A stretch of 64,000 nt of DNA from an uncultured Acidobacteriota bacterium (GTDB lineage Bacteria; Acidobacteriota; Thermoanaerobaculia; UBA5066). The stretch's first letter is position 1, and the number at the start of each line of letters is the position of its first letter. Position numbers and translations under genes: made by a program. Shown piece after piece: positions 23,105 to 50,190 of the stretch. Below the pieces are notes generated by a model, which saw only the letters and a list, made by a program, of their open reading frames with translations, had not been told where the DNA came from and searched no databases. The stretch lies in contig CAVZYA010000002.1 of the NCBI GenBank assembly GCA_963779415.1, positions 928,001 to 992,000 on the forward strand. Reading direction: 5' to 3'.

Positions 23105-24204
23105 GGGCGCTTGAGGACGGTGCAGAGGACGTTCCCCCCCGCGCCGAAGGCGTTGACGAGGACGGCGCCCGTCTCCGGACGCTCGGCGATCTCTTCCGCG
23201 GCGAGGGCGAGCTGAATGGCGCCGATGGCGGGGTTCTCTCCGAGAGACTCTTTCACGGCGACCGTTCGCGGCTGTGCCGGAAAGACGATTTCGAGAGCGC
23301 GCGCTTCGGCTCCATCGGTTTCCATCACGCCGTTTCGGGAGAGATGGACGAGGCCGATCTCCGACGGCGCGAGGCCGGCCTCGTCGAGCGCGGCACGCAT
23401 GGCGGCGGAAAGCTCCGCCGGATCGGCCCTCCGGAGCTGGGGGGAGACGGCGGCGGGGCGGATGACGACCGACGCGACGCGCGCCTTTACGGCGGCGCCC
23501 CTCTCGCGCGCCGCCTCTTCGTCCTCGACGAGCAGGAAGGCGGCTCCTTCCCCGAGGACGAATCCGGCCCGGCGTGCGGTCCGGGTCGCGTGAATCCTCT
23601 CGTAGACGAGGTGGTACTCGAGGTTCCACTCGTCGGAGGCTCCGACGAGGATGGCGTCGGCGCGCCGGTCGTCGAGGAGGAGCCGGGCGTAGAGGAGGGC
23701 GTTCTGCGCCGCCGGGTCCTTCTGCGTGATCGTGACGTTCGGCCCGCGGATCTGAAGCTCGATGGCGGTGACGGAGGCGGGGGCGTTCGAGACGGTGTAC
23801 GGAAAGAGGAAGGGAGACGCGGAGTCGGGCCCTTCGAGCGCCATCTGCCTCTCGAAGTCGACGAGCGGCCCGGCTCCCGCCGAGCCCGTGCCGACGAGGA
23901 TTCCGGTCCGCTCTTCCCGTCCGGCCATCGCGTAACCCCCGCTCGCGAGCGCCTGCCGCGCCGCCACCACGGCGTACTGGCTGGCCCGGTCGAGCCGGCG
24001 GGACTTCATCTTCGACATCTCGGGTTCGGTCGTGAACGTCACGATCCGCGCGGCGGGGGAGTGGTCCGGCCGGCTCGCCGGGATGTCGGGGGCTTCGACC
24101 GGGGCGAGAGCGCTTCTCCCCTCCGCGAGGGCAGTGCGCGTCGAGGGAAGGTCACGCCCGAGCGCGGTGACGGCCGAGGCACCGGTGACGACCACGGAGC
24201 GCAT
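23101..24204 (-). CDS. Beta-ketoacyl synthase-like protein lacking the catalytic Cys (chain-length-factor-like)
   Basis: KAS fold motifs (VVVTG, RRLDRASQ, SPFLFPYTVSN, GEGAA, FGAGGN); ITQKDPA where TACSS is expected. Confidence 0.8.
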   Translation of the reverse strand: MRSVVVTGASAVTALGRDLPSTRTALAEGRSALAPVEAPDIPASRPDHSPAARIVTFTTEPEMSKMKSRRLDRASQYAVVAARQALASGGYAMAGREERTGILVGTGSAGAGPLVDFERQMALEGPDSASPFLFPYTVSNAPASVTAIELQIRGPNVTITQKDPAAQNALLYARLLLDDRRADAILVGASDEWNLEYHLVYERIHATRTARRAGFVLGEGAAFLLVEDEEAARERGAAVKARVASVVIRPAAVSPQLRRADPAELSAAMRAALDEAGLAPSEIGLVHLSRNGVMETDGAEARALEIVFPAQPRTVAVKESLGENPAIGAIQLALAAEEIAERPETGAVLVNAFGAGGNVLCTVLKRP

Positions 24205-24206
24205 CG

Positions 24207-25418
24207 TCAGGCGGCCCCGAACGCGACGACGGTGGAGTTCCCTCCGAAGGCGAAGGAGCTGGAGAGGGCGGCGCGGACTCGGACCTCCCGAGCCACGTTC
24301 GGGACGACGTCGAGGTCACATTCGGGATCGGGGTTCTCGTACCGGATCGTGGGGGGGACGATGCCGGTCTCGATCGTCAGAACGGTTGCCACCGCTTCGA
24401 TCGCTCCGGCCGAGCAGAGGCAGTGGCCGAGCATCGACTTGATCGCGGAGACCGGAATCTCCATCGCGCGGCTCCCGAGGGCGCGCTTGAGCGCCTCCGT
24501 CTCGGCCGGGTCGTTCTGGGGGGTCGCCGTCGCGTGAGCATTCACGTAGTCGACGTCGCCGGGGTTCAGCCCCGCGTCGTGAAGACAGGCGCATAGAGTC
24601 CGCGCCCCCGCCTCGCCGGTCGGCTCGGGCTGGGTCATGTGGTGCGCGTCGGAGGTGACGCCGTAGCCGAGGAAGCGCGCGTGGATGGTGGCGCCTCGCC
24701 GCCGCGCCCGGTCTTCTTCCTCGAAAATGAGTATTCCCGCGGCCTCGCCCACCGTCATTCCCTTCCGCTCCCGGTCGAACGGGCGGCACGGCTCCGGGTC
24801 GGTGGCGCGCAGGGCGTTGAAGCCGCCGTGCGTCAGGCGGGCGAGAGTGTCGGCGCCTCCGGTCACGACGACGTCGCAGAGGCCGTGGCGGATCAGGTCG
24901 GCCGCGTAGCCGAGCGAGGTGGCCGACGACGAGCAGGCGGTCGTGATCGTCGAGCGCGGGCCGAGGAGGCGCCACCGCTCGGCGATCCGGTCGGTCGTCT
25001 GGTCGGGAGGATGGTTCAGGACGCGGGTCGGACGCGCGGCGCGCGGCCCTTCGGCGAGGAGGGTCCGGTAGTAGTTCTCGCTGTCGAGAAGGCCGGAGAC
25101 GCCGGCGCCGAGGACGACGCCGATTCTCTTCGGGTCTTCGCGGGAAAGGTCGAGGCCGCTGTCCCGAAGTGCCTCGGCGGCTGCGGCGAGGCCGATGACA
25201 TCCGTCCGCGAGAGGCGCCGCCGGACGGAGGGCGTCACGCCCGGATCGGGGAGCGACTTCACTTCGGCCGCCAGTTTCGTCCGGAAAGCCGAGGCGTCGA
25301 AGAGCGCGATGGGGCCGATGCCGCTCCGGCCGGCCACGAGGCCGTCCCATGTCGCGCGGAGGTCGTTTCCGAGCGACGAGACCGCCCCGAGGCCGGTGAC
25401 GGCGACGCGTCGGCTCAC
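24207..25418 (-). CDS. fabF: 3-oxoacyl-ACP synthase II-like (KAS II)
   Basis: TTACSSS, VNAHATAT, LGHCL and FAFGGN; GTG 25418 overlaps the M16 stop. Confidence 0.88.
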   Translation of the reverse strand: MSRRVAVTGLGAVSSLGNDLRATWDGLVAGRSGIGPIALFDASAFRTKLAAEVKSLPDPGVTPSVRRRLSRTDVIGLAAAAEALRDSGLDLSREDPKRIGVVLGAGVSGLLDSENYYRTLLAEGPRAARPTRVLNHPPDQTTDRIAERWRLLGPRSTITTACSSSATSLGYAADLIRHGLCDVVVTGGADTLARLTHGGFNALRATDPEPCRPFDRERKGMTVGEAAGILIFEEEDRARRRGATIHARFLGYGVTSDAHHMTQPEPTGEAGARTLCACLHDAGLNPGDVDYVNAHATATPQNDPAETEALKRALGSRAMEIPVSAIKSMLGHCLCSAGAIEAVATVLTIETGIVPPTIRYENPDPECDLDVVPNVAREVRVRAALSSSFAFGGNSTVVAFGAA

Positions 25419-34805: not shown

Positions 34806-35564
34806 TCAGGCGGCGCGCCGGGAGCGGGTCTCGCGCTTGGGGCCGGAAATCGCCAACGTCAGGACGAAGCCCGCATCCTCGCGCCAGAAACCGGCGAGCG
34901 GGCGATCGCCCCCCGGAACTCCCGGGGAGACGAGCGCCTCGAACCCCTTCCAGCCTCCGCCGTCGGGACGGGGGAGGCCGGGGAGGCCGGTGGCTTCGCT
35001 CTCCGACAGAATGATTCCGACCGAGAGGGTGTCGACGGCGAGGCCGACGCGAAGCGCCTTCAGGACGGCTTCCTTCGCGCTCCAGACGGCCGTGGCGAAG
35101 ATGTCGCGATCGCCGCCCGGAGAGAGCGCCCCCCACGCGTCGATCTCGTGGGGCCTGAAGAAGTCGCGGACGAACCCGGCTTCGCGGGGGGCGATCCGCT
35201 CGAGGTCGGCGCCGGCGGAGAGTCCGTCTCCCGTTTCGGCCCACGCGGCCGAGAACGCCATCCCCTCGGAGTGACTGATCGACACGCCGACGGGAAGCTT
35301 TCCGCCATCGGCAAGGCGGACGACCGGCGCTCCCGAAACCTCGGCCACGATGTCGAAGGCGTCGAGGGGAAGCTCCATCCGGACGAGGTCGGAAAGGAGG
35401 CGCGCGACGAGCGTCTTCGCCGCCAGGCGCCCGAGAAGCCAGTCGGCTCGCCGTTTCGGGATCCGAAGGGCCGCGAGCCTCTGCCGCTCGGCGGGCCCGA
35501 GCCATCCGGGCGTCCCCGCGGGAGGGACGGGAAGGCTCGCAAGGAGCGACCAGTGAATCGTCAC
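34806..35564 (-). CDS. Sfp-type 4'-phosphopantetheinyl transferase
   Basis: [23 protein letters not shown] and [10 protein letters not shown]; GTG overlaps the PKS stop (GTGA). Confidence 0.9.
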
Positions 35565-38500
35565 AGGGTGACCGTCCCTTCGAGAGGTACGGTCCGGTAG
35601 CCCAGAAGCTCGACGAAGACGTTCCCGGCCTCGTCCACGACGCGCCCGTCGAACGACGCGCCGCCGTCGAGGGCCGTCACGACGGCCCAGAGCCGCTTCG
35701 ACTTCGCGTCTTCCTCGTCGCCGAAAACCCGGACGGACGCGAGGGCGGCGGGAAGAGCGAGGCGCTTCTTCGCTCCGACCTCCCAGATCCCGGCCGTCTG
35801 GAAGCAGAGCTCGATGAGCCGCGGCGCGACGAGCGCGGCGGCGTTCGGCGGCTCGGCGTTCGGCGGAAGGTCCTTCGCGAGGAGGCCCCACGCAGTTTCG
35901 CCGTCGACGAGGACCCCCTCGAGGACGCGATAGGCCGGACCGTGGAAGTAGACGCGGTAGACCGCCTCGCGGCCGATCGGGAGAGGGTTCTGTGTGGATG
36001 GAGGCTTCTTCGAGATCTTCGGCATCTGCCGGATCGCCTTCGTCATCAGGACCCGCGCGCGGAAGTGGAGACGGACGACGGGGGGAAGGTCCGGCTTCGG
36101 CTGCGTGACGGAGGAGAGCGTCGCCGTGACGAAGAGGTCGCTGCCGGCCCCGGCCGGGGCTGCCTTCGCCGCGAGATGGAGAGTCGACGGAAGCATCCGG
36201 AAGAACTTGAAGGGACGGACGAACTCTTCTTCCTCTACGGCCGCCACGCCGAAGCCCGGGCAGAGAACGCTCGCGATCTCGGCGAACGTCTCGGTCCCCA
36301 TGACGCCCGGAAGGAGCGGCGTTCCCTCCATCGAATGATCGAAGAGGAAAGGCTGCACCTTCGGGTCGAGGGGAGTCTCCGCGAGCAGGCCATCGTGAAG
36401 GCGCGCCGCGAGGAGGCGGCCGACGGTGACGAAGGGGCGGTCGCGCCGGGCGAGGCGGGCGTTCGCCTTCGCGGCGTCGAGGCCCCCCTCCGTATCCCAC
36501 TCGGCGCCGAGGACGCCGAGCCGACCGGCCACGACGATCTCGCCCGAGAAGGCCGAAGCGACGAGCTCCCGGCGGACCGTCGGGATTCCCGCCTCGGGCG
36601 GAAGCATGTCGATCCCGGCCGCCTCCATGATCTTCGGGATCGAGCCGCGCGTCGCCATCCCGATGCCGCCCCAGGCGGTCCAGTCGATCGCGATCGCGCG
36701 CGTCTCGGGGCGGTGCTTCCGGAGCCACGACGAGATCGAGCAGAGAAGCGCGTTGGCCGCGCTGTAGTCGGTCTGGCCGTCGTTCCCGAAGCGCCCCGCG
36801 ACCGAGCTGAAGACGACGGTCGCCCCGAGCGGCATCCCCTCGGCGGCGCGAAGGAGGGAGAAGAAGCCGTCGGCCTTGATGTCGAAGACGACGTCGAACT
36901 CCGTCGGCTCCTTGTCGGCGAGCTTGCGGGAGATCTCGACCCCTCCGGCGTGGACGAGGACGTCGATCCTCCCGTGCCGGGCGCGGATCTCGGAGACGAC
37001 GGCCTCGAGGGCGGCGCCGTCGAGGAGGTTCGCGCTTCGCCAGACGGCGGTCCCTCCGGAGTTCTCGACCGCCGAGATCGCACGAAGTGCGGCGTCCGAT
37101 CGCTCGATGCCGAGGATCGTCCGGTCGATGACGGCGGGCGTCGGCTTCTCGCCGCGCCGCTTCGCTTCTTCGATGAGCGCTCTCTTCAGGGCTTCCCGGT
37201 CGGTTCGGAAGAGGGCGATCTTCGGGTCGTCGCGTCGCGGCTCCGGAACGAGATCGAGAAGCCAGAACGTGCCGCCCGAGGCGGCGGCGAGGTCGGCCAC
37301 GATGGCGCTCGTGATCCCTCCGGCCGCGCCCGTAACGACGAAGACGGACTCCTTCCCGAGGGTGAGCCCGGGCGTCCCGTCGCGGGCGGGACGCTCCTCG
37401 AGGCTCACCGTCCAGCGAAGGCCATCCTTCCGTCCGGCCTCGACGACGCCGGGATCGGCGAGCGTCTCTTCGAGAAGCGCCTCGGTCACGTCCGCGGCAT
37501 TCGCTCTTTCTTCGACGTCGACGACTTTCACGAGCGCCCCGGGGCGCTCGCGCTTGTATGCCTTGGTGAAGCCGGCCACGGCGCCGCCGAGCGGGGCCGT
37601 GGCGCCCTCCGCCCCTTCCCCGAAAAGGCCCCCCATTCGCGTCGCGGAGACGAGGAAGGTACCGGGCGAGGCGACCGCGTCGTAGAGGACGCGCATCGCC
37701 GCGTGGAGGCTCTTCGTCCGGCGGCGGTTCGCGTCGCGGAAGGCGGCGAGATCGAGGGTGAGGAGCGAAGGCTCGACATCGAGGGCGGGGAGCCAGTAGA
37801 CGCCGTGGACCGGCCCTTCGGTGAGCCATCTCCGAAGCCGGGCCTCGAGGGCGGCGGCCGGACCGTCCGCGAGGACGAGGACGGCGACGCCCCTCTTCTC
37901 GAGCCGCGTCTTCAGCTCTTCCGCGACCCCCCCTTCGTCGGGGGCGACGACGACGCGGCTTCCCGCTCCGAGCGCCACGCCGGTCGACTTCATCAGGTCG
38001 ATCGGGGGCCGGAGCGACGGGACGGCCACGCGCCTCGGGACGCGGTCGGCGTCTTCGAGCGTGGCCGGTAAGGCTTTCGCAGGTGCGATCAGCACCTTTT
38101 CTTCGAGGGGGAGAGGGGGAGGCGCAGAAGCAGAGCCGGTTGGCGGCAGCGCACCGGCGATGATCTCTGCCTTTTCGCTTTCGACGCTCGCACGCGCCGA
38201 AGGCGCGGGCGCGAGTTCCGGCCGGTGGGTATAGACGAACTGGACGACATGGCGGAGCGTGGGGAAGTCGCGGAGCTTGAGGCTCTCCTGTCTCGGGATG
38301 TTCCAGGTCTCGCGCACGGCGGCGAAGGTCTCGGCCTGCTTGACCGTGTCGACGCCGAGGTCGGCCTCGAGGTCGAGGTCCAGCTCGAGCATCTCGGGGG
38401 GTAGCCGGTCTTCTCGGCCACGATGGCGAGGACCTTCGTCACCACATCGTCTGATGCCGGTAAGGCAGCCGCGGGGGCAAGGAGCACCTTTTCTTCGAGG

Positions 38501-41500
38501 GAAAGAGAGGAGACGGGCCGTGGCTGTTGCAGTGCCGAAGGCGCGGGTGCGAGCTCGGGGCGGTGGTCGTAGACGAACTTCACGACGTGCCGGAGGGTCG
38601 GGAAGTCGCGGAGCTTGAGGCTCTCCTGTCTCGGGATGTTCCAGGCCTCGCGGACGGCGGCGAAAGTCTCGGCCTGCTTGACGGTGTCGACGCCGAGGTC
38701 GGCCTCGAGGTCGAGGTCCAGCTCGAGCATCTCGGGCGGATAGCCGGTCTTCTCGGCCACGATGGCGAGGACCTTCGTCACGACCTCGTCCGACCCGCTG
38801 ACCGCTGCGGGGGAGGCCTGCGCAGAGGCAACCAACACCTTCTCTTCGAGGGGGAGAGAGGCGAGCCGGAGCGGCCGACGGCGCGGGCGCGCGTCGTCTC
38901 TCCCGTCTCCCCGCCCGGGGCGCGGCGAGCGGGAGACGTCCCCCACTTCCAGCGGCTCGGAGCGGGGGAGCGGGCCGGCGCGCCCTTCGACGCGATCCGG
39001 AGATTCCGTTTCACGACCTCGAGCTCGGGGGCGTCCTCGCCCGTGATCTCGGCCAGCCAGCGCCCGTAAAGCGCCTTGTCGTCGACACGGTCGAGCGGGC
39101 CGGGGACCCGGCGCGTGAACGTGAGGGAGATCTGCGAGCCGAAGCCGGCGGCGAGGTGGATCGCGTAGGTCGACGGGGTACCGCCCGCCGCGCGAGAGGT
39201 TCAGGAGGCCGAGGTCGGGGTCGACCTCGCGGAAGTTCGGGACGGGGGGAACGATTCCGTGCTCGAGGATCTTCACGGCGATGACGTCCTCGATCCCGAC
39301 TCCCATCGGGTGGCCGGTGAACCCCTTCGTGTTCGCGACGACGATCTCGCTCGCCCCGGGCCCGAAGACGCTGCCGAAGGGCGGCGACCTCGGCGGAGGC
39401 GCTCCCGCCGCGGGCCGGCGTGAAGGTCTCGTGCGACATGAAGACGGTCTCGCGGAGCGATCGAGCGCCGGTCGATCCCGAAGCGGCGCTCGGCGGAGGA
39501 GACGAGGCTCTCGACGACCTGCGCGATGTGCTCCACGTCGAGGCGCGTCCCGTGGAAGGCGCTGTTCCGCGTCTCGGTGGAGAGAAGCTCCACGATGCCG
39601 CGCATCCCGCGCTCCTCGACCGCGTCCTGGCTCTCGACGACGAGGGCGCACGCCCCCATCCCGATCGAGGGTCCCGTGGCGGCGGCGGTCGAAGGGGAGG
39701 GCCGCCTCCTCGACCTTGTCGTCCGTCGCCGCGGCGCCGGTCGCGAGGAAGCCGGCGCCGATCCACGGGAAGAGATTCGTCGCCCGATGACGTTGTCGGC
39801 GCCGATGACGAGGACGCGGCGGCAGCGGCCCACGCGGATCCAGTCCTCGGCCAGCGCGATCGCCTGGGCCGTCGAGGCGCAGGCGGCGTTGACCTGGGTG
39901 TTGGGGCCGCGCGCGCCGACGTACTCGGCGAACTGGCTGTGCCCCATGGAGAGGATCCGGAAGCAGGAAGCGCCGGTCGAAGCGTACGGGTTCTGCGCGA
40001 GCTCGTCGTCGAGCAGGCCGATCCGCCGGCGGATCTCCGCGATCGTCGCGGCGTCGCGCGTCGTCCGGAGAAGATCCTCGAGCGTCGCCTTCTCCTTCCG
40101 GCCGCGCCTCGTACGGCGTGGAAGCGGGACATCTCGTCGGCGAAGCGGTCGTAGCCGGGGAAGGCGCTCGCGAAGATGACGCCCGTCTCGTCGCGGAGCG
40201 GCTCCGGGAGCAGCCACCGGTCGGGGAGGAACCTCCCCGTCGTCGTCTTCTTCCAGGTCTGGACGAGCGGGATGCCCGCCTCGCGCAGGGCGTCGAGGCC
40301 GGCGGCGATGGCGAGCTGCGTCGTCATGTCGAGCGCCTCCGACGAGCTTCTCGGGGACGCCGTACTCCGCGGCGAGGTCGAAGGCGCCGGGGCGCGCCGC
40401 GAGCTTGATGACGTCGTCGGTGTCTCGATCGTCTCGAAGCGGCCGCTCCCGTCCTCTCCCTTCACGACGCGCGTGACCTTCCGGTCGCGGCATGGCGCTC
40501 GCGGAAACGCTCGGGAAGGAGGGCGACGAACTGCTCGCCGCCGAGGATCCGCGCGGCGTTCTCCGGGTCCATGACCGGCTTGTCGGCCCCGGGAAGGCCG
40601 AGGCCGGTGCCGCTGATGACGATCGAGCCCGCGGGGACCTCGTTGCGGTCGAGAGCGCCGCGGGGGCCGGCGTCGAGCTGCCGGAGGGTCTCGGAGAGCA
40701 GCGCCTTCAGCTCGGCGATCGGCGGCCGAGGAGCCGACGGCGGGGGCCGAGGCGTGCGAGACCGTCGCGAGAGCCGGGACGATCTTCTCCGCCGGACGGC
40801 CATGTCCCGCGGCCCAGAGGCCGCAGAGGGCGTGGGAGAACGTCGGGACGTCGCCGGGCTTCGGCGCGTTCGTGAAGAGCGAGACGAGGCCGTCGCGTCC
40901 TTCGAGGACGTCGTCGACGAACCCTTTCAGCGCGCGCTTCGGCCCGACCTCGACGAACGTCCGGGCCCCTTCGGCCCAGAGCGTCTCGAGTCCCTTGACC
41001 CACTGGACGGGGGAGGCGATCTGCCGCTGGAGGATCTCCTTGATCTCGCCGGGCGTCGTCCGGGTAGAGGTCCCCCGTCACGTTGGCGACGACGGCGAGG
41101 CGCGGCGGCGAGACGCGAGAGGCGGTCGAGCACCTTGCGGAGCGGCCCGCTCGCGGGAGCGACGATCTCCGTGTGGAAGGCGTGGCTGACCGGAAGGCGC
41201 ATGACGTGGTAGCCGCGCTTCTGAAGCGCCTCGACGGCGGCCTCGACGGCGGCCGGGCTCGCCGCCGATGACGCACTGGGCCCGGCTGTTGATGTTCGCG
41301 GCGACGACGTAGCCGTCGATCGTCCGGAGGACCGCTTCGACCACCTCGACGGAGGCCATGACGGCGGCCATCTCGCCGTTGTCGGCGAGGGAGACGTGCG
41401 TCATCTCGCGCCCGCGCGCGGCGGCGGCCTCGAGGGCATCGGCGAAGGGCATCACCCCGGCGGCGACGAGCGCGCCGTACTCGCCGAGCGAGTGGCCCAT

Positions 41501-43594
41501 CACCATCTCGGGCTCGAAGCCGTAGACTCGCGAGCGAGCTCGACAGAGCGCGATGTCGGCCGTCAGCATCGCGGGCTGCGTGATGGCCGTCTGCTTGAGA
41601 GCCTCCTCGGCCTCCCGGAGCGCCTCGGGGTCCTTGGCGTCGACGAAGACGAGCGACGTGAGCGACCGGCCGAGGATCGGCGTCGATGACGCGGTCGGCC
41701 TCGTCGAAGACCGCCCGGGCCTCCGGGAGCCGCGAGGCGAGGTCGCGCCCCATGTTCACGTACTGGCTCCCCTGCCCGGGGAAGAGGAAGGCGAGCTTTC
41801 CGGCGGCGGGGCCGCTGCCGCGGAAGATCCCCTGCGACGCGAGGGCCGTGAGGGCCTTCGGCGCTTCCGGCCTCGAGCGCCTTCTGCGTCTTTCCCAGCT
41901 TCTCGAGAAGCTCCTCGCCGATCCGAAGTCGATCGACGAGCCGCTCGCGCGCGGCAAGGACGTCTGCCCCGGGGCGCGCGGCGGGGGGAACGAACCCTTC
42001 CTTCACCCGCGCCATGAGGGCGTCGAGATCGCGCCCGAGGGCTGCCGGAGAGTCCGCGCCGAGGGCCGCGACGCCGCGGAGGGGGGTCTTCTCGGGTCGT
42101 CTCGCCTCCGGGGCGACGGCGGCGGGAACGGACGAGGGAACGGAAACGGCGACCTGGTCGCGTCCTTTCGACGTCAGCATCCCCGGAACGTGCTCCTCGA
42201 GGACGAGGTGGAAGTTCGTCCCGCCGAAACCGTAGGCCGAGACGCCGCAGCGCCGGGGCGTCCCGTTCTTCGTCTTCCAGTCGCGAGAGCTCGTGGGCGA
42301 GGCGGAAGGGGCTCGTCTCGAAATCGATGTTCGGGTTCGGCGTCCCGGCGTTCAGCGTGGGCGGGAGCTTCTTCTCGTGGACGGCATAGACCGCCTTGAG
42401 GAGGCCGGCCGCGCCGGCCGCCGCCTTCAGGTGGCCGACGTTGCTCTTGGCCGAGCCGAGCGCGATCGATCCGCGCGGGGCGCCCCCGAAGACCGACGCG
42501 AGGCTCTCCACCTCCACGACGTCGCCGACCTTCGTGCTCGTCCCGTGCGCCTCGATGAGGCGTGCAGGTGGCCGGGTCGAGCCCGGCGTCGCGCCAGGCC
42601 CGCTCGACCGCGAGCTGCTGCCCGGCCGGGTTCGGCGCCGTGATCCCTTTCCCTTGCCGTCGCTCGACGCCGCCGATGCCGCGCAGAACGCCGTAGATCC
42701 GGTCGCCGTCCCGCTCGGCGTCGGCGAGGCGCTTCAGCAGGAAAGCCGCGCACCCTTCGCCCATGACGAAGCCGTCGGCGCCGTCGCCGAAGGGGCGCGT
42801 CCCGGTGGCCGAGAGCGCGCCGATCTTGCAGAACTTCACGAAGGTCGAGGGGCCCATGTTCCGGTCGACGCCGCCCGTGAGAACGGCGTCGCAGTGCCCG
42901 CCGGCGAGGAGGTCCATCGCCGCGTCGACGGCCGCGAAGGTGGAGGCGCAGGCCGCGTCGGTGATGAAGTTCGGACCGCGGAGGTTCAGGACGTTCGCGA
43001 CGCGTCCGGAGATGATGTTCGGCAGCTCGCCCGGCATCGAGTCCTCGGTGATGGGGGGGAGCATCGCCGACACCTTCTCGTGCCAGCGCGGCGAGGATCG
43101 CCTTCGCGGACGCTCGCGGGAAGTGTCGAGAACTCCGTCACTCCTTCCAGTGCCTTGCGCCAGCTCGGGGAAGAAGACGCGGTGCGCCGTGAGGTAGTGA
43201 AGCTCGCCCCCCATCGCCGTCCCGAGGACGACTCCCGTCCGCTCGGTGTCGAGCGGACGATTCGGCCAGCCGTAGTCGGCGAGCGCCTCGGCGGCGATCG
43301 TCACCGCCCACTGCTGTCCCTCGTCCATCGCCGAGGCGACCTTCGGCGGGATGTGAAACCGCTTCCAGTCGAAGGTGAAGCCGCGGACCCAGCCGCCGAT
43401 CTTGCTGTACGTCTTGTCGGGGGCCGCCGGGTCGGGGTCCAGAAGTCGGCCGGGTTCCAGCGCTCGGGCGAGACCTCCGAGATGCAATACCGCTTCTCGC
43501 GGATGTTCTTCCAGAAGGCGGGGGCGTTCGGGGCGTCGGGGAGGATGGCTCCGATCCCCACGATCGCGGCGGCGCGGCTCTGGCGTTCGCTCAT
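35561..43594 (-). CDS. Giant iterative type I PKS/FAS, KS-AT-KS-ACP-ACP-KR-DH (many frameshifts between 38400 and 43450)
   Basis: Start [15 protein letters not shown] at 43594; KS1 DAACAS/EAHGTST/SNVGHL; [19 protein letters not shown]; KS2 NAACAS/SHET/TGHPM; 2x [14 protein letters not shown]; KR TGAAGGI..DYSAAN; [12 protein letters not shown]. Reconstructed by eye across frames. Confidence 0.85.
38060..38860 (-). repeat. Tandem ACP + linker duplication within the PKS
   Basis: Near-identical ACP-coding segments at about 38220-38450 and 38560-38790; LEEKVL linker motif occurs three times (38092, 38484, 38836). Confidence 0.9.
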
Positions 43595-43613
43595 GGCTTC
43601 TTCAATTCTCCGG

Positions 43614-45239
43614 TCATCCGGCGGGGAACGCCCGGGCGAGTTCCCGGGCGAGGAAATCCTCGTCCTCGATCCGTCCCGCCTGCGCCGCGAAGGCGCTGTC
43701 GAGGGCGAGGCTCTGCGCGAGGGCCGCGTCGGTCTGGCCGGCGGCGTTCGCCCACTTGAGGCCGTCGGACGCCACACGGACGAGCGCCTCGCGGGCGTGG
43801 ACCCGTGCCATCGCGGCGAGGACGGGGGCGCCGAGGGAGAGAACGGTCGACGGCTTCGACGCGGCGCGCTCGGAGAAGATCGCCGCGGTCTCGGCCCACG
43901 CCGTCAGCTCCCCGAGACGGAAGAGGACGTGCTGGTTCCGCGTGAGGCGGTCCAGGCGGCACCGCTCGAAGAGGGCGGCGAGGGAGCGGAGCGCCTGCGC
44001 CGCGAATGGCGCGCCCGTCTCGGCGCTGTCCGCCAAGACGCGCCGCCCAGTCGAGATACCAGGTCCCCCTGGTCTTCAGGTGGTGCTGCCACCGGTCGCG
44101 GGCGATCGTCCACTCCATGATCTCCGAGGTTCCTTCGTAGATCGTCGTGATCCTGACGTCGCGCTTGATCTTCTCGACCAGGTACTCGCGCGTGTAGCCG
44201 TACCCGCCGAGCGCCTGGATCGAGTCTTCGGCGGCCGGTTGCCGGCTTCCGTCGCCGCGTACTTCGCGACGGCCCCCTCGGTCGCGAGGTCCGGCTCGCC
44301 GCCGTCGATCCGCTCGGCCGTCCACTCGATGTAGGCGCGCGCCGCCTCCAGCCGGACGGCGTTCGGAACGATGAGCTTGTGGGTGTACCCCTGCTTCTGC
44401 GAGAGGGGGGCTCCCCCCTGGACGCGGGTCTGCGAGTAGCGGATCGCCCGCTCGAGTGCGGCCCAGCCGGCCCCGAGGCCGAACGCCGCGACCATCAGGC
44501 GCGTGTAGCCGAAGACGGCCTGCGCCTGCGCGAGCCCCTTCCCCTCGATTCCCCCCACGAGCCGCTCGGCCGGGACCACGACGTCCTCGAGGAACAGTGC
44601 CGCCGTGTTGCTCGCCCGGATGCCGTGCTTGTCCTCCGGCTTGCCGTGCGAGAAGCCGGGGAGCCCCTTCTCGACGACGAACCACGAGGGGCCGCCGGGG
44701 GCGTTCGCGAGGATCGTGTAGATGTCCGCGACGCCGCCGTTCGAGATCCACTGCTTCCGGCCGGAGATCCGGTAGGCCGTCGTCTTCCCGCCTTCGGCGA
44801 CCGGCACCGCCGTCGTCTGGAGGGCCGCGAGGTCGCTCCCCGCCTGCGGCTCGGTCGCCCCGTAAGCCATCAGGAGCCCCTCGTCCGCGAGGCGCCCCAT
44901 CCAATGCGCCTTCTGATCCGGCGTCGCACCGACGAGAATCGGGTCGGCCCCGAGGCAGGTCGCGAGGACGCCGGTCGCGATGCCGAGGTCGATTCCGGAC
45001 ATCACCTCGCAGACGCGGTAGATGTCCCAGGCGCTTCCGCCGAGACCGCCGCTCTCCTCCGGGACGAAGAGAAGGTGGATGCCGATCTGCTGCGGGTCGT
45101 AGAGGTCCTTCAGGACCTTCTCGGGGAAGACGTCCTCGTGGTCCAGCTTCAGGAGGACCTCGGGAGTCAGCTCGCGCGCCGCGTACTCCTTCAGCGTCGC
45201 GAGGAGCATCTCCAGAGTTTCATTGTCGAGACGTGCCAT
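43614..45239 (-). CDS. Acyl-CoA dehydrogenase with C-terminal extension (frameshifts near 44230 and 44040)
   Basis: [20 protein letters not shown] and KHGIRAS, then [17 protein letters not shown] in a second frame; GGAG SD. Confidence 0.88.
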
Positions 45240-49179: not shown

Positions 49180-50190
49180 TTACGCCTCGGCGGTTGCCGG
49201 TGTCGCGGGGGCATTCGGCTTCGTGGCCGGCTCCGCGCCTCGGGCCAGCCACGCCGAGGCCGTTCCGAGATACGCCGTCCGGGAGAAGATCCGGGCGAAG
49301 ACGACGACTTGCTGCAGGAAGAGGAGCGTGGCGTAGTCGGAGAGGTCGCCGCCGTCCCACGCCCGGCCGTAACGCACCCAGAGCGCGAGCGGGAGGATCC
49401 CGAACGCCCCGAAGAAGATCTCGAGGCCGAGCGTTCCGACGGGGTGCGCGAAGGCCATGCCGAGCCCGCGTCCGAGCGCGGCGGCGAGGTTGATGCTCCC
49501 CGAGAGCCCCATCGAGGCCCGGCCGAACTGGACGACGACCCGGACGAAGCCCGCCACGACGAGGAAGACCGTGAGACGGACGAGCTGCAGGACGAGCGCC
49601 TGCCACTCATAACGGAATTGGGATGCGTCGTAGAGGAAGCCCGTCCCGACATAGAGGTAGCGCCAGGCAGCAATCAGAAGGACGGCCGAGAGGACTCCGA
49701 GGAAGAGCGACGGGAAGGCGAACCTCCCGCAGTCCTCGCCGAACGCCGCGAGGCTCGAGCGTCCGCTCGCCGCGCCGAAGCGCCCGGCGAATCCTCCCGC
49801 GAGAATGGCGGCGAGCGCAGTCGAGAGCGCGCCGAACGCGACCGTCGCGCCGGCAAGGCCGTCCCTCGGGAGGAGGTCCGCGAGCGAAGCGCGGGCCGAG
49901 GTGCCCGACGGCGTGTTCCCGGTCACGACGTCCTCCAGCTTGCCGACGTCTCCGAGGACGTCCGGGCGGACCCGGGTGAAGTGGGCGAAGAAGAGCGGGT
50001 CGACGCCCTTCGTCAGCCGCTCGGCCCACGGGTTGCGGTCGAGCGTCTCGTGGAGGGCGCTCGCGGCCGGTCGGACGAGAACGAACGCGAGGGCGGCGTT
50101 CAAAAGGAGAGCGAGGAGGAGCGCCTTCCACATCGTGAGGGTGGAGGCGAAGGCGCGGAAGACGAGGACGGTGACCGAATGGCGTCTCAT
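49180..50190 (-). CDS. Hypothetical polytopic membrane protein coupled to the M1 peptidase
   Basis: Several hydrophobic segments; ATG overlaps the M1 stop (ATGA). Confidence 0.7.
   Translation of the reverse strand: MRRHSVTVLVFRAFASTLTMWKALLLALLLNAALAFVLVRPAASALHETLDRNPWAERLTKGVDPLFFAHFTRVRPDVLGDVGKLEDVVTGNTPSGTSARASLADLLPRDGLAGATVAFGALSTALAAILAGGFAGRFGAASGRSSLAAFGEDCGRFAFPSLFLGVLSAVLLIAAWRYLYVGTGFLYDASQFRYEWQALVLQLVRLTVFLVVAGFVRVVVQFGRASMGLSGSINLAAALGRGLGMAFAHPVGTLGLEIFFGAFGILPLALWVRYGRAWDGGDLSDYATLLFLQQVVVFARIFSRTAYLGTASAWLARGAEPATKPNAPATPATAEA

Follow-up and report, generated by a model that had tools for sequence, protein, structure and literature searches.

Threonine at the canonical phosphopantetheine position of tandem carrier domains in a PfaA-like synthase cluster with its own Sfp-type transferase

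Serine is treated as the universal acceptor of phosphopantetheine (Ppant) in the carriers of fatty acid, polyketide, and nonribosomal peptide synthesis. What, then, is to be made of a carrier domain that has threonine in its place? The question is raised by a 64,000-nucleotide stretch of DNA from an uncultured bacterium of the Acidobacteriota (G000:C2:928001-992000, with 69.5% G+C; “the window” below is this whole stretch), which belongs to a genome, G000, of 4.36 Mb in 3 contigs. Three consecutive genes on the minus strand of the window encode an acyl-CoA dehydrogenase (ACAD), a large type I synthase, and a 4′-phosphopantetheinyl transferase (PPTase; 252 codons), and both acyl carrier protein (ACP) repeats of the synthase have Thr at the canonical Ppant site, within the context LG[IV]DTVKQAE. 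A preliminary description of this DNA had pointed to the two Thr residues, encoded by different codons (ACC and ACG), and to a PPTase gene directly downstream; we confirm these at their coordinates (Table 1), including the overlap of the synthase stop TGA (35563-35561) with the GTG start of the PPTase gene (35564-35562) in the tetranucleotide GTGA (35564..35561). Thr occupies the canonical position, a large clade conserves it there, and a PPTase with intact catalytic motifs accompanies it. On the basis of sequence comparisons, we consider it likely that this Thr is the phosphopantetheine site and that it would be loaded by the PPTase of the operon.

Does the Thr really occupy the attachment position? 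In a phmmer search of all PDB chains, the significant matches of the Thr-type ACP were ACPs only, and the Thr aligned with the phosphopantetheinyl Ser of both PigH ACPs (5y08; DLGVDSIALAE and DLGIDSVSVA), as well as with that of the ACPs 2koo, 2cnr, and 1x3o. An AlphaFold2 (AF2) model of the domain, computed from an alignment of 12 orthologous domains (mean pLDDT, 89.1), has the helical-bundle ACP fold with helices at residues 2-14, 35-48, and 65-75, and helix II starts exactly at residue 35, which is the Thr. Three hydroxyl residues of the domain are invariant (T14, T35, and T64), of which T35 alone lies at the canonical site, and no other conserved Ser was found in the alignment of orthologous domains. 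Where the PP-binding family (PF00550) has the canonical Ser of the (D/H)S(L/I) motif, at the N terminus of helix II, both copies in the window and their orthologs have Thr.

The Thr-type domain was found in 16 of 40 relatives, all of them members of the window's own family (16 of 24 genomes, compared with 0 of 9 and 0 of 7 in the two other families, f2 and f3). The synthases of these relatives are open frames of 2,300 to 3,600 codons with 2 to 6 ACP copies, and every copy shown reads LG[IV]DTVKQAE. Beyond the relatives, a motif-independent phmmer search of 1.84 billion representative proteins returned 5981 matches with an E value of ≤1e-3 (882 with ≤1e-30), and the residue at position 35 was read in the best 150 of these 5981. 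In this set, 407 of 588 domain stretches have Thr and 179 have Ser, with a single Ala and a single Asp. Counted by protein, 112 are all Thr and 33 all Ser (the latter comprising the PfaA type, DLGIDSIKRVE, and a DLGIDSIKKAQ type), three mix Ser and Thr, and one each combines Thr with Ala or with Asp. Two of the mixed arrays (P0034 and P0125) read TTTTS and the third (P0082) reads STT, its Ser copy (DLGVDSIKQAE) standing beside a Thr copy (DLGIDTVKQAE). In P0049 and P0071, one copy with Ala (GIDAVKQ) or Asp lies inside an otherwise Thr-type array; such copies are probably dead, a situation known from other tandem ACP arrays.

A scan of a genome collection holding one genome per prokaryote species gave at least 558 confirmed places, of which the best 80 loci, L042 to L121, were analyzed; L033 and L034 were left out of the analysis. 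All 293 ACP copies in the 80 loci have Thr; because the selection patterns contained DTVKQAE, this count carries a bias for one copy or more in each locus. The Thr codons are ACG (140), ACC (129), ACA (15), and ACT (9), and no Ser codon occurs; because Ser is absent despite saturated third positions and lies one base change away, selection appears to act on Thr itself. The preliminary description had taken the two different codons as an argument against a base-calling error and as a hint of conservation, an expectation borne out by the orthologs and by independent assemblies, and the outcome that would have spoken against it, homologs mostly carrying DS, turned out the opposite way: the orthologs have DT without exception. 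By record title, the 80 loci belong to Acidobacteriota (33), Chloroflexota (22), Myxococcota (9), Gemmatimonadota (3), and Actinomycetota (2), with one each from Spirochaetota, Pseudomonadota, Bacteroidota, Rhodothermota, and Elusimicrobiota and six unplaced, such that the cluster spans at least 10 phyla. The loci closest to the window (87 to 91%) are from metagenome-assembled genomes (MAGs) of Acidobacteriota/Thermoanaerobaculia.

A tree of the first ketosynthase (KS) domain was built from 50 sequences, namely, the 49 of the 150 proteins with a near-complete first KS (101 fragments were excluded) and the intact ortholog described below. In this tree, 29 Thr-type proteins and the one mixed protein cluster together (SH-aLRT, 84), and the long-branched Thr-type protein P0094 is placed elsewhere; the residue labels require 3 changes, compared with 16.4 in shuffles.

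The intact ortholog from a genome of the same genus (G003) has 2808 aa from its likely start and comprises KS, acyltransferase (AT), a second KS (KS2), three ACPs, ketoreductase (KR), and dehydratase (DH) domains. It has the motifs DAACAS, EAHGT, and KSNVGH in the first KS, GHSLG and HAFH in the AT, NSACAS in KS2, S...YxxxN in the KR, and HxxxGxxxxP in the DH. Across the best 80 loci, the gene order is constant (ACAD, then KS-AT-KS-ACPn-KR-DH, then PPTase). In 63 of the 69 loci that could be assessed, an ACAD gene is found upstream of the synthase at a distance of no more than 700 bp; the G003 ortholog of the window's ACAD has the Pfam domains Acyl-CoA_dh_N, _M, and _1. Complete ACP arrays hold 2 to 7 copies (63 loci), and the window, as assembled, holds 2. 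The active-site Cys of KS2 (at about 38900-40720 in the window) is kept in all 72 loci in which the site is visible, in motifs such as VNAACAST. KS2, a domain called chain-length factor (CLF) by Shulse and Allen, may be a second working ketosynthase rather than a chain-length factor. A genome-wide PP-binding search of G000 gave four places in all and no second carrier in the Thr cluster; the three other places, all with Ser, lie elsewhere (AcpP, with DSLD, and domains with LDSID and LDSIA).

The end of the synthase can be seen in 70 loci. In 62 of these, a PPTase gene follows on the same strand, at a distance of up to 1.5 kb in 38 loci and of 5.3 to 6.0 kb in 24. Of the eight in which it was not seen, one has less than 1 kb of room, four have less than 7 kb, and three have at least 7 kb. 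The gap of 5.3 to 6.0 kb in 24 of the 70 loci was scanned in two of them (L064:12946-18561 and L047:13458-18785), and in both, its frame encodes a single giant eukaryote-style acetyl-CoA carboxylase of ∼1,780 to 1,870 aa (BC-BCCP-ACC_central-CT); in three further loci, the gap is filled by frames of like length. This giant carboxylase suggests that the cluster brings its own malonyl-CoA supply.

Could the accompanying PPTase act on such a domain? It resembles the Sfp-type (group II) enzymes, among them Sfp, human AASDHPPT, EntD, and PfaE/HetI, in its two-domain size and in having both GxDxE and WSxKExxxK. Across 30 aligned cluster PPTases, G118, D120, and E122 of the former motif and W161, S162, K164, E165, and K169 of the latter are invariant; these motifs fit GxD(L/I)E and W(S/T)xKE(A/S)xxK, the Mg/CoA signatures of the type, and the length fits its two-domain organization. 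A profile of these PPTases matches PDB structures of Sfp (1qr0/4mrt; E value, 1.7e-12; positions 5-169) and human PPT (2cg5; E value, 6.8e-10), as well as EntD and 7bcz; a PDB search with the single sequence found no significant Sfp-type structure. The clade is very divergent: the matches of the PPTase to the NCBIfam families HetI and AcpT are far under their cut-offs, and the window PPTase scores 23.1 bits against 4PPT_N, under the cut-off of 27. To our knowledge, all characterized Sfp-type PPTases load Ser.

Thr-type ACPs and this PPTase clade tend to occur together, as the preliminary description had proposed to check. In addition to the 62 of 70 loci, among 41 genomes, 14 have both the Thr-type ACP and a strong match to the PPTase clade, 3 have the ACP only (G001, G007, and G008, the first two fragmented), 1 has the PPTase only (G018, 77% complete), and 23, including the unpublished genome G025, have neither; because the 41 genomes are kin, these counts are descriptive. 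Apart from the cluster PPTase, G000 has two PPTase-family genes, both AcpS-like (C1:2013208-2013510 and C1:1168747-1169046). The second of these is located at the end of a 298-codon open frame.

Furthermore, a structure prediction for the PPTase, CoA, Mg, and ACP together scored 0.82, compared with 0.01 for the best of three controls. This mark was reached by 58 of the 80 solved complexes and by 2 of the 110 mismatched pairs used for calibration, a calibration that applies only roughly here because custom alignments and ligands were supplied. The runs share at least 92% of their contacts, partner pLDDT is at least 85, and the contacts join PPTase E165 to ACP residue 35 and W161 and E122 to residue 36. 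The predicted pair resembles an ordinary PPTase and its carrier, with the Thr placed at the catalytic Glu; this is a statement of likeness and not of binding, and since PPTase-carrier complexes have already been solved, the predictor may be reproducing them.

Two related genomes of the same family bear on the specificity of the enzyme. At L122 (G021:C1:488001-508000) and L123 (G017:C3:99001-119000), a canonical Ser-type PfaA-like gene with two ACPs (DLGIDSIKRVEILS) precedes a PfaC-like gene that is rich in KS and AT domains. Next to these Ser-type PfaA-like genes, no PPTase was found, and the sole Sfp-type PPTase in each genome is that of the Thr cluster. Unless an AcpS-like enzyme loads the Ser-type synthase, the transferase would serve Ser and Thr carriers alike, and these gene inventories suggest a dual Ser/Thr PPTase. 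A claim of the preliminary description, that the pair is orthogonal to housekeeping ACPs, is unsupported in that form.

The explanation that we favor is then as follows. The tandem domains would be true acyl carriers of an iterative lipid/polyketide synthase resembling polyunsaturated fatty acid (PUFA) synthases, and the Sfp-type PPTase of the operon would move 4′-phosphopantetheine from CoA onto the hydroxyl of the Thr with which helix II begins. Once in the holo form, the domains would shuttle malonyl and growing acyl chains among KS, KR, DH, and, probably, the upstream enzyme of the acyl-CoA dehydrogenase type. We infer that the Thr is modified, and by this PPTase, because a synthase with catalytic motifs under selection needs a carrier and none else is present in the cluster, because the PPTase travels along, and because Thr is strictly kept while Ser sometimes substitutes within the same array. 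As to why Thr would be used, insulation from AcpS or from phosphodiesterases is possible, as is a more stable phosphodiester of a secondary alcohol.

Several observations weigh against this reading. The S36T variant of Escherichia coli ACP can be neither phosphopantetheinylated nor used for complementation (PMC3340395); ordinary PPTases thus reject Thr, which is what makes the case surprising. The motifs of the cluster PPTases are canonical for Sfp, and no obvious active-site change was seen in them. The Thr-type domain is a marginal match to the PP-binding family, scoring 19.8 bits for the window frame against a cut-off of 20.8, with 24.2 bits in the genome search (the ortholog in G003 reaches 43 bits, summed over three copies). 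Downstream of the synthase in L045, L072, and L116, no PPTase was found despite at least 7 kb of room. Finally, the synthase gene in the window is frameshifted, and should the indels be real decay, this copy may be nonfunctional.

The alternative that survives best, which we nevertheless regard as unlikely, is that the Thr domains are unmodified pseudo-carriers acting as scaffolds or spacers, that the synthase uses CoA-bound or trans-ACP-bound substrates, and that the PPTase serves another protein. The dead E. coli variant and the marginal Pfam score would fit such domains, and the Ser-type PfaA-like synthase of related genomes, lacking a PPTase of its own, could be the client of the operon PPTase; G000, however, has the PPTase without a Ser-type PfaA, and the cluster has no other carrier. 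A scaffold would also have no reason to keep Thr in every copy, yet Thr is strictly kept, with Ala and Asp once each among the 588 stretches and with Ser one base change away. Moreover, the arrays of 2 to 7 copies look like productive PUFA ACP arrays, and Ser and Thr copies are interchangeable within arrays. The preliminary description had offered a Thr-phosphopantetheinylation pair and a nonloading scaffold side by side; conservation and co-occurrence favor the former, and the latter is weakened.

Less probable still is that the Thr bears another prosthetic group or a direct acyl oxoester or that another residue is the attachment site. Against this reading stand the Sfp-type PPTase encoded in the operon, whose CoA/Mg motifs are intact; the lack of any other conserved Ser in the domain, in which T35 is the sole invariant hydroxyl residue at the canonical position; and the complex model, which places T35 at the catalytic Glu. 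Lastly, the chance that the Thr codons are a sequencing or assembly artifact of the window is negligible, for although about 35 single-base indels were counted in the gene as assembled here, the errors are indels and not substitutions and identity to the orthologs is no lower in the broken part. A base-calling error was rejected because Thr recurs without exception in independent assemblies from many phyla, where each of the four ACN codons is used.

These indels were overlooked in the preliminary description, which had read the ACPs correctly but missed the frameshift in ACP repeat 2 and in the synthase. As assembled, the synthase does not form a single open frame: tblastn with the intact 2808-aa ortholog as the query has to change frame 12 times or more between 43594 and 38401, after which the remaining 946 aa, up to the stop, are unbroken. 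In a three-way DNA alignment of the window with two orthologs, 27 extra and 8 missing single bases between 43441 and 38399 are found in the window only, in addition to one 2-base insertion. Among these indels is the frameshift in ACP repeat 2, where a base is missing from a run of six C's (38401-38396) that corresponds to seven bases in repeat 1 (CCGCCCG) and in an ortholog (CCCGCCG). Translation of the ACAD gene reveals an out-of-frame stretch of ∼70 codons with a stop at 44076-44078. The indel-dense region spans 38399-44300, and its flanks (35564-38400, the PPTase gene, and the TonB receptor and M28 peptidase genes) are clean.

Probably, these indels are consensus errors confined to this part of the assembly. 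Nearly all of the changes are 1-base indels, without an excess of substitutions (in the broken part, nucleotide identity is 0.80 to 0.87 between the window and G003, compared with 0.77 to 0.83 between G003 and L042), and the neighboring TonB receptor and M28 peptidase genes downstream are intact. Relatives' contigs from other metagenomes differ from the window by single bases at several of these places (39456, 39666, 40422, 40490/1, and 42561-7). In a search for sequencing runs of the source organism, no listed run contained more than 0.11 of the sampled words, and no RNA run containing them was listed; matching at 85% likeness retrieved relatives' contigs only. The Thr finding is untouched by the frameshifts, as it rests on intact orthologs.

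Is the cluster new? In 2011, Shulse and Allen described a “Type R” secondary lipid cluster in which one pfaA homolog, KS-MAT-CLF-ACP(3-6)-KR, is followed by a PPTase gene (PMC3098273). Its hosts were Koribacter, Solibacter, Elusimicrobium, and Roseiflexus (Acidobacteria, Chloroflexi, and Elusimicrobia), its product was unidentified, and in Koribacter, an acetyl-CoA carboxylase gene lies between the pfaA homolog and the PPTase gene (PMC3098273). As far as the published description extends, the Thr cluster matches Type R in architecture, PPTase, carboxylase, and taxa, the last through MAG loci from Korobacteraceae (L109), Elusimicrobiota (L119), and Chloroflexia. It goes beyond that description in its C-terminal DH, its conserved upstream ACAD, and the active-site Cys of the “CLF.” Neither “serine” nor “threonine” appears anywhere in the main text of the Type R paper, and the Thr site is not described there (PMC3098273). 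The cluster type is therefore already known but uncharacterized, and the Thr acceptor is the new element.

With PfaA (TIGR02813), the synthase shares the order KS-AT...tandem ACPs-KR-DH, and the ACPs are 38 to 49% identical, with a common LEADLGID-x-[IV]K context. PfaA ACPs differ in having Ser (DLGIDSIKRVE); the Thr-type synthase has an extra KS between AT and ACPs, and unlike PUFA synthases, the Thr cluster is without PfaB, PfaC, and PfaD partners. TIGR02813 is the best NCBIfam match of the intact ortholog, at 971.4 bits against a cut-off of 1010.1; because the score falls under the cut-off, we regard the synthase as a relative and not a member of PfaA. We found no report of a Thr attachment site in literature searches, which do not reach most subscription journals or any supplement, in agreement with the statement in the preliminary description that no characterized example was known.

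A broader proposal, which we advance tentatively as possible rather than probable, is that these domains form a clade of Thr-phosphopantetheinylated carriers in at least 10 phyla, with coevolved Sfp-type PPTases that gained acceptance of Thr, the pair being insulated from AcpS and perhaps resistant to phosphodiesterases or β-elimination. The exchange of Ser for Thr serves as a “dead” control in E. coli. A large natural Thr clade whose members each have a transferase gene of their own would extend the chemistry of the modification. If the Thr is loaded, O-phosphopantetheinyl-threonine would be a new natural form of it, motif-based rules that call Thr-type domains inactive would come into question, and an orthogonal or dual-specific PPTase/tag pair could serve protein labeling, loading, and pathway engineering. 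The cluster also draws attention to a lipid pathway that is widespread among bacteria of soils and sediments, including Acidobacteriota, Chloroflexota, and Myxococcota. The question, whose positive answer would surprise specialists, lends itself to a direct test by mass spectrometry of two small proteins.

Table 1. Coordinates of the Thr-type cluster and its domains in the window
Feature	Position	Strand	Basis
ACAD family gene, first gene of the conserved cluster	43617..45239	-	tblastn with the G003 ortholog (77% identity, 540 aa)
PfaA-like type I synthase, KS-AT-KS2-ACP-ACP-KR-DH	35561..43594	-	Pfam domains on frame pieces
ACP repeat 1, Thr codon ACC at 38683-38685	38536..38787	-	PP-binding, 24.2 bits; AF2 model
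ACP repeat 2, Thr codon ACG at 38345-38347	38198..38448	-	Two pieces in two frames
Ketoreductase domain	36668..37342	-	Pfam KR, E value of 5.5e-21
Polyketide-synthase-type dehydratase domain	35579..36397	-	Pfam PS-DH, E value of 7.3e-12; PKS_DH_N, E value of 2e-4
Sfp-type 4′-phosphopantetheinyl transferase, 252 aa	34806..35564	-	Pfam ACPS, 46.8 bits (cut-off, 25)

Two further features were seen near the cluster. About 10 kb from it, on the minus strand of the window (23266-25238), two adjoining discrete ketoacyl-synthase genes (Pfam ketoacyl-synt N and C) form a KS pair in the style of type II systems. A protein with a MiaE-like (diiron hydroxylase) C-terminal domain is encoded just upstream of the ACAD gene in G003 (L032:17968-19515); in the window, such a protein is encoded at about 49235-50131, ∼4 kb from the ACAD gene.

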